DNA of 64,000 bases from Pyrinomonadaceae bacterium (GCA_035249365.1 DATFGP010000022.1:192013-256012), one strand, 5' to 3'; counted from the first letter of the stretch, positions 36,661 to 54,547 are shown. Notes: generated from the sequence alone by a model not told the origin. Numbers and translations are program-made.

Positions 36661-36759
36661 TGTCCGTTGTCAGTGGTCAGTTGTCCGTTGTTTATGTGAA
36701 ACGAGCAAGTGACTAAAGATTAGAGCGAACAACTGACAACGGACGACGGACAACGGACA
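36661..36759 (+). repeat. B-family heptamer-arm palindrome with conserved core, plus orientation
   Basis: tgtccgt-tgtcagt-ggtcagt-tgtccgt ... core 'caagtgactaaagatt' ... aactgaca-acggacg-acggaca-acggaca. It fills the nuoB-nuoC gap. Confidence 0.9.
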
Positions 36760-36760
36760 A

Positions 36761-37306
36761 ATGAGCAAAGATATTGAGCGCGAACAGGCGATAGCCGAGC
36801 AAGCGGCGGGTGAGCCGTTGAAGGATCAGGCGGGCGCGGGGTTGATCGCCGCGCTGCAAGGGTCGCACGCAGACGCTGTTGTTGAGGTGATTCAGGCGTT
36901 CGGCGAGATCACGATTGTTGTGCCGCGCGAGCGCATCGTCGAGTTGTGCGAGTATTTGAAGACGACGCCGGAGTTCGAGTTCAACATGCTGGCAGACATC
37001 TGCGGCGTGGATCGTGGGCCGGAGGAAGACCCGCGATTTGAAGTCAACTATCATCTTTTTTCTACGACCAAATTCCATCGCTTACGACTCAAAGTTGTCG
37101 TCAGCGAAGAAGACGCGCGCGTGCCGACCGTGACGGGCGTGTGGCGCACGGCCAACTGGCACGAGCGCGAAACTTTCGATCTATTCGGCGTGCGTTTCGA
37201 CGGCCATCCCGATTTGCGTCGCATACTCCTGCCCGACGATTGGCAGGGGCACGCGCTCCGCAAAGACTTCCCGCTGCGCGGCTACGAGCCGTACAGCCTT
37301 AGCTAA
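36761..37306 (+). CDS. nuoC: NADH-quinone oxidoreductase subunit C
   Basis: 30-kDa subunit signature 'ANWHERETFDLFGVRFDGHPDLRRIL'. Confidence 0.94.
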   Translation: MSKDIEREQAIAEQAAGEPLKDQAGAGLIAALQGSHADAVVEVIQAFGEITIVVPRERIVELCEYLKTTPEFEFNMLADICGVDRGPEEDPRFEVNYHLFSTTKFHRLRLKVVVSEEDARVPTVTGVWRTANWHERETFDLFGVRFDGHPDLRRILLPDDWQGHALRKDFPLRGYEPYSLS

Positions 37307-37416
37307 GTGACAAGTGACAAGTGACGAGTGACAAGTTAAAGACAAAAACAGTCTTCGCTCGCCACATGTCTTTATCTTATCTTGTCTCGTCACTTGTCAC
37401 CTATCACTCGTCACTG
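37305..37416. repeat. A-family heptamer-arm palindrome
   Basis: aagtgacaagtgacaagtgacgagtgacaag-(45-nt loop)-cttgtctcgtcacttgtcacctatcactcgtcactg. It starts on the nuoC TAA and is followed by 'attacttATGg', which contains the nuoD start. Confidence 0.92.
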
Positions 37417-37423
37417 ATTACTT

Positions 37424-52175: not shown

Positions 52176-52249
52176 TAAGCGCATATTTCAACTTTGAAAG
52201 CGGCAGATTTGATAGTGGAATTTTGAAGTTGGTCGGATTTGAAGTAAGT

Positions 52250-52825
52250 ATGTTGAAACTAAGCAAGAGGTTTTATCTCGCTACGGCGTTGCTGCTCGCT
52301 TTGCTCTGCGGCGCATTGCCGCTCGCGGGGTCGCCGCACGCTAATTCAAACGAACGCGTTAGTATTAAGCTCAAGGGCGTTGACGGGAAGACTTACGATG
52401 TGGCCGCGATGCGCGGCGAAGTGGTGCTCGTCTCTTTCGGCGCGACGTGGTGCAAGCCGTGCGCGTGGGAGTTGGAAGCCCTCGAAGAGTTGAAGCGTGA
52501 GTATGCGGGGCGCGGCGTCAAGTTTTTGTGGGTGAGCATTGAGAATGACGATCAAACTTCAAACGAGTTGCTGCGCGATTACGCGAAGTCTCTGAAGATG
52601 ACGATTCCCGTCCTGCGCGATCCTGAAAAGACCGCCTTCGCGCAGTTCAGCGAGCGCGTGCGTCTGCCGATGGTCGTCTTCTTCGACCGCGAAGGGAATT
52701 TCATCCCGCCCAAGCACACGGGCATGACTTCGCAAGCAGAGGATTACAAGAAACTGATCCGCAGCCGTCTCGACCAGATACTCCGCGCCGAAGAGGATGC
52801 GGGCGGCGCGCCCCCGCTGCCGTAA
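52250..52825 (+). CDS. Exported TlpA/ResA-like thiol:disulfide oxidoreductase
   Basis: Signal peptide 'MLKLSKRFYLATALLLALLCGALPLAG' and thioredoxin-fold motif 'FGATWCKPCAWE'. Lies between nuoM and nuoN. Confidence 0.85.
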   Translation: MLKLSKRFYLATALLLALLCGALPLAGSPHANSNERVSIKLKGVDGKTYDVAAMRGEVVLVSFGATWCKPCAWELEALEELKREYAGRGVKFLWVSIENDDQTSNELLRDYAKSLKMTIPVLRDPEKTAFAQFSERVRLPMVVFFDREGNFIPPKHTGMTSQAEDYKKLIRSRLDQILRAEEDAGGAPPLP

Positions 52826-52886
52826 TCATTGTTGCTGTCACCGCTCGCCGTTTGAATTTGACGGCTGTTAGTGCTGAGTTAAAAAG

Positions 52887-54464
52887 ATGAACTTGTGTCT
52901 CGCATTTCAAATTGCTCAGGCCGCGTCGCCTGACATCAATTTCATGCTCATCCTGCCGGAGACGATCATCTCCGTCGTGGGCGTGCTGGTCATGCTCGTC
53001 GATGCGTTCACGCGCCGCTCGAGCCAGCGCTGGGTGACGGGACTGCTCTCGCTCGCGGGACTCGTCGCCGCCGCAGCCGTCTGCATCCTCATGTGGAACG
53101 ATCAGACGACAGCGCGCGAAGCCTTCAACGGAATGATCGTGCTCGATCGCATGCGGCTCTCCTTCACGCTCGTCTTCCTCGTCGTCTCAGCACTCACGGT
53201 GCTCATCTCGATGATCTGGGTCGAATGGGAACACTTGCCTGCGGGCGAGTTTCATTCGCTCCTGATGTTCGCCACCGTCGGCATGACGCTGATGGCTTCG
53301 GGCGGCGACCTCGTGATCATCTTTCTCGGTCTCGAACTACTCTCCATCGCCACCTACGTCATGGCCGGATTCCGACGCACGGATGTGCGCTCGAACGAGT
53401 CCTCGATGAAGTATTTCATACTGGGCGCGTTCTCGTCTGCGTTCCTGCTCTACGGCATCGCGCTCGTCTACGGCGGCACGTCACTCGCAAACGGCGGCGC
53501 GGGCACGACCAACATTAAAGAACTCGCGCTCAGAGTCGGTGCGGAGAACGCTCTGGCCTACCCCGCGCTCCTTTACGCGGGCGCGGCGTTGATGCTCGTC
53601 GGCTTCGGATTCAAGATCGCGACCGCGCCGTTCCACGTCTGGACGCCCGACGTGTACGAGGGCGCGCCTACGCCCGTCACGGCTTTCATGGCCGCCGGGC
53701 CGAAGGCTTCCGGCTTCGCAGCCTTCATGCGCGTCTTCCTCTTCGGCTTCCCCTTCATCGCTGCAACGACGAACGCCGCGCAACTCCATTCCGCATGGAT
53801 GAACGCCCTCTGGCTGCTCGCGATCCTAACGATGTCGGTCGGCAACCTCGCTGCGCTCGTGCAGACGAACGTCAAACGCATGCTCGCCTATTCGTCCATC
53901 GCGCACGCGGGCTACGCGCTAGTCGGCTTCGTCGCGGCGGGACAGGCGCGCGATGAGGCGTTGCAAAATGAAGCCATCGCCGCCGTCGCCTTCTACCTTC
54001 TGGCCTACGCGGTGATGAACCTCGGCGCGTTCGCCGTCGTCACGCTCATCGCGCGCAGCGGCGACCGACGCACGGAGATCGAAGACTACAACGGCATCGG
54101 ATTTACCGCGCCCGCGCTCTCCTTCGCGCTCACGCTTTTTCTACTGAGTTTGCTCGGTATCCCTCTCACCGCAGGATTCATGGGCAAGGTGATGGTCTTC
54201 CGCGCCGCGCTCGATCAAGGCTTCGTCGCGCTCGTCGTCATCGGCGTTCTCAACACTGCGATTTCGGTATACTATTATTTGCGGCTCGTCGTCGTGATGT
54301 TCTTCCGCGAACGCTCGACCGCTTGGAGCGCACCCGCCGTGCCCGTCAGCGTCGCGCTGGCGATCATCATCACGGCGCTCGGCGTGTTTTATCTGGGAAT
54401 TTTTCCGGGTCATGTGTTGGACGCCTTCCGCGACTCGCAACAAGCTGTCAGCCAATTGAAGTGA
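52887..54464 (+). CDS. nuoN: NADH-quinone oxidoreductase subunit N
   Basis: 525 aa with 'GFKIATAPFHVWTPDVYEGAPTPVTAFMA' and 'KRMLAYSSIAHAGY'. The start could instead be an internal Met. The stop TGA (54462-54464) is part of the first repeat unit. Confidence 0.93.
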   Translation: MNLCLAFQIAQAASPDINFMLILPETIISVVGVLVMLVDAFTRRSSQRWVTGLLSLAGLVAAAAVCILMWNDQTTAREAFNGMIVLDRMRLSFTLVFLVVSALTVLISMIWVEWEHLPAGEFHSLLMFATVGMTLMASGGDLVIIFLGLELLSIATYVMAGFRRTDVRSNESSMKYFILGAFSSAFLLYGIALVYGGTSLANGGAGTTNIKELALRVGAENALAYPALLYAGAALMLVGFGFKIATAPFHVWTPDVYEGAPTPVTAFMAAGPKASGFAAFMRVFLFGFPFIAATTNAAQLHSAWMNALWLLAILTMSVGNLAALVQTNVKRMLAYSSIAHAGYALVGFVAAGQARDEALQNEAIAAVAFYLLAYAVMNLGAFAVVTLIARSGDRRTEIEDYNGIGFTAPALSFALTLFLLSLLGIPLTAGFMGKVMVFRAALDQGFVALVVIGVLNTAISVYYYLRLVVVMFFRERSTAWSAPAVPVSVALAIIITALGVFYLGIFPGHVLDAFRDSQQAVSQLK

Positions 54465-54547
54465 CGAGTGACAGGTGACAAGTGACAAGTTAAAGCAAAA
54501 AACTTGTTTTGTTCTTGCTTGTCACTCGTCACTCGTCACTCGTCACT
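54459..54547. repeat. A-family heptamer-arm palindrome
   Basis: aagtgacgagtgacaggtgacaagtgacaag-(28-nt loop)-cttgtcactcgtcactcgtcactcgtcact. It is followed by 'tcttATG', the start of the next gene. Confidence 0.92.

Follow-up and report, generated by a model that had tools for sequence, protein, structure and literature searches.

Gene-less intervening sequences (IVS) of about 100 nt occur in Salmonella, and in phage T7 early mRNA RNase III sites lie between cistrons, where cleavage leaves protective half-stems; the STRR heptamers of cyanobacteria are a further system for comparison. In the 23S rRNA IVS of Coxiella, which RNase III excises, the terminal stem measures 28 bp and three to four GACAGAT copies immediately precede the S23p start (PMC4990558). 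Simple sequence repeats (SSRs) with heptamer units occur in excess in many bacteria (PMC4692102, PMC4679880). Rehm et al. (2015, PMC4692102) described intergenic heptamers, GGGAATC in Xanthomonas and GGGGA(C/T)T in Nostoc, with a preference for about four units; Xanthomonas genomes hold 70-75 "convergent" inverted GGGAATC pairs each, the G-rich strand lying no more than 50 bp past a stop codon and the C-rich one no more than 50 bp ahead of the next open reading frame (ORF), mostly between genes of the same direction; the repeats are transcribed. These repeats were explained through G-quadruplexes (G4), which were shown in vitro, and no link to a mobile element or gene was reported (PMC4692102). 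Cyanobacterial TAACTGA direct repeats are intergenic tandem heptamers of several families that often end 1 nt upstream of a start codon (MacGregor 2015, PMC4679880), and repetitive extragenic palindromic (REP) sequences, with the related BIME and REPIN, are extragenic palindromes mobilised by RAYT (Bertels & Rainey 2011, PMC3116915; PMC3733652). Here we describe long hairpins built of inverted heptamer arrays that fill six cistron junctions of the nuo cluster in a 64,000-nt stretch of DNA from an uncultured Pyrinomonadaceae bacterium (GCA_035249365.1, DATFGP010000022.1:192013-256012), hereafter called the window, and compare them with these systems.

The nuo cluster occupies the + strand from 35494 to 54464 in the order nuoA, nuoB, nuoC, nuoD, nuoE, nuoF, three foreign ORFs, nuoG, nuoH, nuoJ, nuoK, nuoL, nuoM, a redoxin gene and nuoN, and its six hairpins are listed first in Table 1. 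These elements are 92-121 nt long, with inverted-repeat arms of 32-43 nt that are 79-88% complementary and loops of 6-55 nt that contain no ORF, and 31-46 base pairs are predicted per element. The near-perfect duplex, of about 25-45 bp, has the length of a classical RNase III substrate. An earlier note on this DNA, made from the sequence alone, had placed elements with stems well over 20 bp at these six junctions, and its coordinates, sizes and family labels (A, B and GGGATGA) all proved correct. The remaining 11 junctions of the cluster showed no significant structure (z from -1.4 to +0.7). Every arm consists of some 4.3-4.6 tandem heptamers (period 7 by Tandem Repeats Finder), about 28-30 bp for four units, and the opposite arm is the complementary array. 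The units read AGTGACA/AGTGACG in family A, TGTCCGT/TGTCAGT (TGTCMGT) in B and GGGATGA/GGGCGGA in the third. The stems run from the upstream stop codon, beginning at or within it, to a few bases before the next start codon, and at nuoC/D the nuoD ATG directly follows the right arm. The element at the nuoN 3' end is likewise a cistron junction, with the nuoN TGA inside its first AGTGACG unit and the next same-strand ORF (190 aa) beginning at 54552/54553, 3 nt past the right arm.

Table 1. Heptamer hairpins and the gene-bearing element in the window. Minimum free energies (MFE, kcal/mol) refer to RNA folds and z-scores to dinucleotide shuffles.
Feature	Position	Strand	Family or unit	MFE	z	Context
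nuoB/C hairpin	36661-36759	+	B	-43.4	-6.8	nuoB stop 36654-36656; nuoC ATG 36761
nuoC/D hairpin	37304-37424	+	A (AGTGACR)	-41.6	-5.6	left arm opens with the nuoC TAA (3 nt); nuoD ATG at 37424
nuoD/E hairpin	38637-38735	+	B	-33.8	-3.0	nuoD stop 38633-38635; nuoE ATG 38739
nuoG/H hairpin	45788-45885	+	GGGATGA/GGGCGGA	-53.9	-6.5	nuoG stop 45785-45787; nuoH ATG 45893
nuoK/L hairpin	48058-48178	+	B	-56.3	-7.0	nuoK stop 48052-48054; nuoL ATG 48185
Hairpin after nuoN	54458-54549	+	A	-58.4	-11.1	nuoN TGA 54462-54464 in first unit
etfA/etfB hairpin	2952-3027	-	CCATCAG-type		-8.2	C-rich 5' arm, among few such
etfB/fabF hairpin	3798-3924	-	B			central module in transcription direction, like nuo copies
fabD/fabH hairpin	6663-6749	-	GGGAAAG-type		-8.8	
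yceD/rpmF hairpin	9091-9183	-	A			
TPR gene/3-hydroxyacyl-CoA dehydrogenase hairpin	11021-11113	-	A			
Hairpin upstream of thiolase gene	13717-13806	-	A			T8 follows on transcribed strand
fpg/peptidase S9 hairpin	18919-19046		GGGGAAA-type		-12.5	convergent genes
metH-like 5' leader hairpin	21653-21766	+	A			downstream of SAM-II riboswitch
Gene-bearing element	28990-29425	+	A			left arm 28990-29016; ORF 29005-29382; right arm 29395-29425

The same elements are dispersed over the rest of the window. A detector that requires a period-7 segment with a reverse-complement partner returned 13 elements, compared with 0 in 100 shuffles, and the addition of three weaker or atypical elements brings the count to about 16-17 per 64 kb, or about one per 4 kb. 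Outside nuo they lie in etf, fab, rpmF and beta-oxidation operons, in the metH leader and between the convergent fpg and peptidase genes. Elements occupy 6 of 17 junctions in nuo vs 10 of 34 elsewhere in the window (Fisher P = 0.75), or 12 of 34 when two atypical elements are counted (Fisher P = 1.0). The hairpin density is a property of the genome and not of the nuo operon, and the suggestion of the earlier note that such a density is unusual inside a single essential operon did not hold.

To place the hairpins in a wider context, we compared 80 species-level Pyrinomonadaceae nuo loci, each covering 10 kb on either side of nuoD; the NuoD of a metagenome-assembled genome (MAG) from Pyrinomonadaceae (Acidobacteriota, Blastocatellia) is 96% identical to that of the window, whose proteins also occur on a contig from a soil-type metagenome in ENA. 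Spacer lengths in these relatives range from -4 nt (overlapping stop and start) to about 130 nt at each junction, and all six junctions that bear a hairpin in the window also occur hairpin-free, with spacers of -4 to about 40 nt. Because each junction also exists without a hairpin across the 80 relatives, the hairpins are common but dispensable. A main stem of at least 18 bp is present in 219 of the 265 spacers of 60-200 nt (median stem 30 bp), and a clear period of 7 in at least 150 of those 219. Under strict detection every element was intergenic (146/146). For the hairpins of the relatives the median distance from the stop codon to the stem is 0 nt, and that from the stem to the start codon 8 nt. 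An assembly artefact is ruled out by the presence of elements in independent MAGs, among them OY969475.1 and OZ244585.1, which were deposited as complete chromosomes. In five relatives a REPIN-like hairpin of a different family (GTTCAGAGTACAAGCTTTAGCTTGC ... GCAAGCTAAAGCTTGTACTCT) stands at nuoC/D or nuoG/H.

The two arms differ in composition in a constant direction. G exceeds C in the 5' arm of 191 of 206 informative hairpins vs 15 with the opposite bias (P = 5e-40), the 5' arm being G/T-rich and the 3' arm C/A-rich. Since a palindrome reads alike on both strands, this G-first asymmetry is silent on which strand is transcribed; any RNA, or any ORF enclosed in either orientation, meets the purine-rich arm first, and a purine-rich leader for either ORF orientation favours selection centred on the element itself.

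Sequence families turn over while the architecture stays constant, with more than 40 canonical heptamer units among the relatives. Related units are found at nuoG/H in the eight closest species, among them GGGATGA/GGGCGGA in the window, AGGATGA/AGGCGGA in relative L025 and ACGATGA/ACGCGGA in relative L002. Every unit shows the change, and the 3' arms mirror it (TCATCCC, TCATCCT and TCATCGT, respectively), so that the arms have evolved in concert and preserved their complementarity. At nuoK/L the window and L002 share one family B element, with arms identical at 66 of 67 positions and loops about 89% identical, whereas identity at third codon positions in the flanking genes is 86-87%. The element family at nuoC/D differs outright between the same two loci, and replacement of elements thus also looks to take place. 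Wholesale replacement between the window and L002 was considered and rejected in part, the nuoG/H element (and probably that at nuoB/C) being the same element changed in concert. The four family B copies in the window (36661-36759, 38637-38735, 48058-48178 and 3798-3924) share a non-repeat central module (..AAGTGACTAAAGATT.. / ..CAAGTTGCTAAAGATTKR..), which is oriented with transcription in 4/4 copies, a statistically weak pattern. One relative (L020) has the same element at both nuoC/D and nuoG/H. Heptamer hairpins are also nested within the loops of other heptamer hairpins (L006 10236-10417, at nuoG/H; L164 2329-2634; L117 2236-2582), which suggests that loops or arrays may serve as insertion targets.

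The window also holds one family A element that carries a gene. Its arms stand 370 nt apart and the 125-aa product is read from a GTG start inside the left arm. The ORF (29005-29382) matches PF05635, the "23S rRNA-intervening sequence protein" or S23p (E = 1.9e-39), TIGR02436, "four helix bundle protein" (E = 3.8e-37), and the Xanthomonas protein XCC0516 (PDB 2GSC, E = 5e-27), and its bAvd-like match is weaker; among the family A copies in the window it is the only one with a PF05635 gene. In other Pyrinomonadaceae, close homologues together with AGTGACR arms were found at different junctions (L084, L085/86, L087, L108 and L206), including those between an ECF sigma factor and a kinase and between OmpA and a histidine kinase, and there too the right arm stops just before the next ATG. 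Arms of other families enclose the gene as well: a PF05635 gene lies within arms of the GGATGTT/GGATTTT or ATTTTGG type in L126, an XCC0516-type gene lies between accB and accC within inverted GGGAATC-type arms in Xanthomonas (L089-L091), and the same layout recurs in Nostoc, Geminocystis, Azospirillum, Anabaena and Picosynechococcus. For at least several families the same arms also enclose a gene for an Avd-like PF05635 protein of about 125 aa. When 2.1 Mb was scanned without bias for heptamer arms separated by 300-500 nt and lacking a nearer partner, 16 cases emerged, 14 of them with PF05635 cargo. Plasmid-borne PF05635 genes were found mostly in heterocystous cyanobacteria; across nine plasmid loci, inverted heptamer arms flank the gene in five (three clear, two weak) and heptamer or octamer arrays lie on one or both sides in three, and a later scan detected weak arms at the ninth locus. 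Several of the plasmid genes (L093, L096 and L097 among them) stand between cas6 and cas4, between cmr2 and cmr3 or between ribonucleotide reductase subunit genes; the cas and cmr positions, like accB/accC, are intercistronic sites of functional operons. In the literature searched we found no description of these elements in Acidobacteria, and no link between heptamers and PF05635 beyond Coxiella.

These features can be set beside those of IVS-type elements and of the Xanthomonas heptamer pairs. The terminal stem of about 25-30 bp that characterises IVS-type elements is matched by 31-46 predicted pairs in the nuo copies and by the median of 30 bp in relatives, and heptamers lie in the arm beside the ORF start. 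The six nuo copies enclose no PF05635 gene, and all copies lie between protein-coding genes and none in helix 25 or 45 of 23S rRNA, the window containing no rRNA gene. Because the PF05635 gene is confined to the 28990-29425 copy, the nuo copies qualify only as gene-less relatives that share its arms. The Xanthomonas-type layout, in which inverted pairs of about four heptamers are G-rich after a stop codon and C-rich before an ORF, is present in full; tracts of G3-4 suited to G-quadruplexes are absent from families A and B and occur only in the GGGATGA and GGGAAAG types.

Other known classes and signals were searched for and set aside. Searches against Rfam at gathering thresholds and at E <= 1 gave only generic miRNA-precursor hairpins (23-38 bits vs thresholds of 60-130). 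REP/REPIN sequences were rejected on the grounds that the arms here are tandem heptamers and lack the GTAG/CGTC head, and no RAYT-family (Y1 transposase) gene was found among the called genes of the 64-kb window, the part of the genome examined. A miniature inverted-repeat transposable element (MITE) was rejected as well: no consistent direct duplication of the target site lies beside the A copies and no transposase-bearing parent was found, the sole gene-bearing relative carrying PF05635. No promoters above background were detected at the elements, and strand-specific selection on the RNA left no signal, the MFE of sense and antisense folds of 176 strong hairpins differing by only -0.5 kcal/mol (P = 0.19).

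The assignment of the nuo hairpins to a class of heptamer palindromic repeats that is not specific to nuo can be made with high confidence. Their kinship with the PF05635 cassettes appears reasonably likely from the arm sequences they share. The family B module may be a remnant of an S23p gene, as its 38637-38735 copy has a 10-nt match (TAAAGATTTG) to the S23p 5' coding region (YKDL motif), a match too short for significance. Taken as a whole, the explanation towards which we lean, by a small degree, is that the nuo hairpins are gene-less miniature elements of IVS type, insertions that the host tolerates and that are probable substrates of RNase III. An element of this kind would be transcribed as part of its host operon, and its two heptamer arrays would pair into a duplex of 25-45 bp, the base of which would bring the flanking stop and start codons side by side. 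RNase III would then probably cut the duplex, as it does in rRNA IVS, splitting the polycistronic nuo RNA between cistrons and leaving each product with a half-stem at its end. RNase III-type processing at the stems is plausible, with a specific precedent in the Coxiella IVS, which bears out the interpretation of the earlier note in part, and we put its occurrence in vivo at an even chance, judging by stem length and the rRNA precedent. Since the stem and its cleavage would make the element self-insulating, its insertion would be nearly harmless, and it could therefore sit in essential operons and in rRNA. The elements would persist and turn over as selfish or neutral DNA, and any effect on nuo mRNA stability would be a by-product.

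Several observations weigh against this explanation. The parent-derivative relation is suggested by shared arms, which insertion of S23p into hairpins that already existed would fit equally well. The loops of the miniature A copies, compared with the ends of the gene-bearing interior, stay within shuffle range and show no significant similarity, so that the orientation of A copies is not reliably callable; A-armed elements with interiors of 170-260 nt (L117, L129 and L164) are nested arrays with no truncated S23p. A metagenome pattern scan for S23p-bearing family B elements gave 0 hits, and none were found for GGGATGA either; tblastn and hidden Markov model searches found no S23p gene in the long (>160 nt) nuo spacers of relatives, where other genes lie. 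Signs of mobility, such as a transposase or a target-site duplication, were not seen. The equal stability of sense and antisense folds leaves room for a role at the DNA level, and occupancy that depends on the junction, together with arms conserved above synonymous sites, fits selection by the host.

This last point leads to the strongest of the alternatives, namely that the hairpins are host-adaptive intercistronic regulators which, as REP-like barriers or processing sites, set the mRNA stability or translational coupling of each segment and hence subunit stoichiometry. Occupancy across the 80 species is recurrent and junction-specific, at about 50% for nuoC/D, nuoD/E, nuoG/H, nuoH/J and nuoK/L vs 11-25% for nuoA/B, nuoB/C, nuoE/F, nuoF/G and nuoJ/K; arms co-evolve so as to stay complementary, and those at nuoK/L are more conserved than synonymous-type sites. 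The relatives also have 122 elements inside nuo vs 24 in roughly 8 kb upstream, an approximately 4-fold difference that is not normalised per junction and on which we do not rely. However, low occupancy at nuoA/B, nuoJ/K and nuoL/M could as well stem from tight translational coupling, under which insertions are not tolerated, each junction also occurs hairpin-free, even with overlapping stop and start codons, and the same families occur at equal density in unrelated operons of the window and are shared with a gene cassette that looks selfish. The absence of any strand-specific (G-U) signal points the same way, and a tuned role in subunit stoichiometry, a possibility that the earlier note raised from REP elements in other bacteria, found no backing, with sense and antisense folds equal, no U-tracts and no Rfam match. 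We regard such a regulatory function as unlikely.

A local, non-mobile origin, in which heptamer slippage beside a stop codon is followed by formation of a palindrome through template switching, would account for left arms that often start with the stop codon itself, and for units that vary by junction and by species. The known heptamer SSR excess in many bacteria (PMC4692102, PMC4679880) and the concerted change of units and arms, which shows homogenisation of a slippage or conversion type, speak for it too. It is nevertheless improbable, as non-repeat cores are common to different loci (the B module, and nuoC/D and nuoG/H of L020), elements are nested in one another, and A arms turn up in numerous genomes and settings, whether or not they enclose the same cargo gene, at least 120 stretches with family A arrays having been found in a metagenome scan; together, the shared cores, the nesting and these stretches argue for dispersed families and not for purely local slippage.

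Hardly probable, too, is a function in the DNA itself, through cruciforms, binding of nucleoid proteins or gyrase (as proposed for BIME/REP) or G-quadruplexes, with effects on supercoiling or replication. Sense and antisense strands fold equally well, one element lies between convergent genes (18919-19046) and GGGAATC repeats form G4 in vitro (PMC4692102), but most families here (AGTGACR, TGTCMGT) have no G-tracts, a reading on transcripts is the simplest both for the flush placement at stop and start codons and for the G-first rule, and the characterised relative, the rRNA IVS, works at the RNA level (PMC4990558). Intrinsic terminators or attenuators that divide the nuo cluster into several transcription units are very improbable, for although the stems are stable and T8 follows one A copy (13717-13806), no U-tract follows any of the six nuo elements (0/6), a terminator scan returned 26 sites vs 23.8 expected with none matching a full element stem, and the stems are richer in A/T than those of canonical terminators and much longer.

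A broader version of the miniature IVS-type explanation can be offered tentatively. It is possible, if doubtful, that a single cross-phylum class of mobile IVS-type cassettes exists, of which the heptamer hairpins and arrays are either gene-less progeny or the obligate habitat. Such a class would cover the elements described here, the Xanthomonas GGGAATC repeats and possibly the cyanobacterial STRR; its cassettes would integrate with precision, either between cistrons or in rRNA helices, and leave the host transcripts by means of RNase III. The Avd-like PF05635 protein, a pentameric four-helix bundle, might bind arrays of about four units and aid their spread or homogenisation.

Apart from the hairpins, several features of gene content were noted in the nuo cluster. 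The gap between nuoF and nuoG (40723-43465) contains three ORFs of low GC content (0.47-0.49 vs about 0.59), which encode a NUDIX protein, a 325-aa protein of unknown function and an AIRS/AIRS_C (SelD/ThiL-like) protein. These three genes were found in 0/80 related nuo loci, where other nuoF/G insertions occur, and in many relatives spacers of 600-1000 nt at nuoC/D, nuoD/E, nuoE/F or nuoF/G hold an extra gene (for example L019, L026, L028, L045, L055 and L057); the nuo cluster of Pyrinomonadaceae is often interrupted by foreign genes. No nuoI lies between nuoH and nuoJ (45893-47730) and the relatives show the same adjacency, which leaves nuoI either encoded at another place or missing from clusters of this type. 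A Redoxin/AhpC-TSA gene (thioredoxin fold) stands between nuoM and nuoN (52250-52825), and the C-terminal half of NuoL (48185-50599; 804 aa) contains a long insert of low complexity in which His, Ser, Ala and Glu abound.

Elsewhere in the window, a SAM-II (SAM_alpha) aptamer was identified within 21525-21766, upstream of the metH-like gene (41.2 bits, threshold 36), and the family A hairpin of that leader separates the aptamer from the ATG (21757), a strange insertion site if the riboswitch acts on the ribosome-binding site. Downstream of metH (23696-23800) there is a 45-bp hairpin, 96% complementary, with arms of 8-9-nt units (CGCAGAGGA) in place of heptamers. The rpmF gene (ribosomal protein L32; about 8880-9070, - strand) lies between yceD and plsX and is missing from the gene calls of the source contig.

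These observations bear on two old puzzles that may share one answer, namely the unexplained excess of heptanucleotide repeats and the origin and function of the 23S rRNA IVS and S23p. Heptamer arms that enclose PF05635 are found in Acidobacteriota, Gammaproteobacteria, Alphaproteobacteria and Cyanobacteria; far more numerous are the hairpins that have the same arms but no gene, and they fill intercistronic gaps, among others in essential operons such as nuo, acc, fab and cas. If the cross-phylum cassette reading were true, it would account both for the bacterial heptamer SSR excess and for the origin of rRNA IVS. Should RNase III cut the stems as it does in rRNA, many "operons" of these soil bacteria would be expressed as processed monocistronic pieces, which would bear on operon structure, mRNA stability and annotation in a major, poorly studied soil lineage. 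For nuo the outcome is deflationary, in that the hairpins are not a dedicated control of complex I.

Compared with the known systems, the elements resemble REPINs in being abundant, dispersed intergenic hairpins of about 100 nt that evolve within genomes, and mRNA-stabilising roles have been proposed for REPINs. Unlike REPINs, they have no GTAG/CGTC head, no short REP palindrome inside and no RAYT gene in the window; their arms are tandem heptamers and the associated gene is PF05635 instead of a Y1 transposase. With T7 early mRNA they share long stems between the cistrons of a polycistronic RNA, whereas each T7 site is a functional signal that exists in one copy and contains internal loops, and the elements here are repeated heptamer palindromes. 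The right arm of family B (CAACTGA/CAACGGA) is one base from cyanobacterial TAACTGA, and the PF05635 genes of cyanobacterial plasmids are flanked by heptamer arrays, although the cyanobacterial heptamers mostly form direct arrays and not the inverted pairs that yield hairpins. The Xanthomonas GGGAATC repeats come in inverted pairs of about four heptamers with the same placement at stop and start codons; the elements here differ from the Xanthomonas and Nostoc repeats in that most families are unable to form G4 and dozens of units are present and not one.

Compared with the S23p-carrying rRNA IVS of Coxiella and Leptospira, the closest characterised relative in architecture, our elements lie between protein-coding cistrons, fall into numerous families within one genome, with roughly one element every 4 kb, and are gene-less in all six nuo copies; RNase III cleavage, shown for the Coxiella IVS, is only probable here. 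Both nonetheless have an inverted-repeat stem (about 28 bp in the IVS), heptamers and a four-helix-bundle cargo protein of about 125 aa, both insert into an essential transcript without destroying its function, and both exist in a gene-bearing form of about 430 nt and a hairpin-only form of about 100 nt, as in Salmonella. The element at 28990-29425 displays the full rRNA-IVS architecture.

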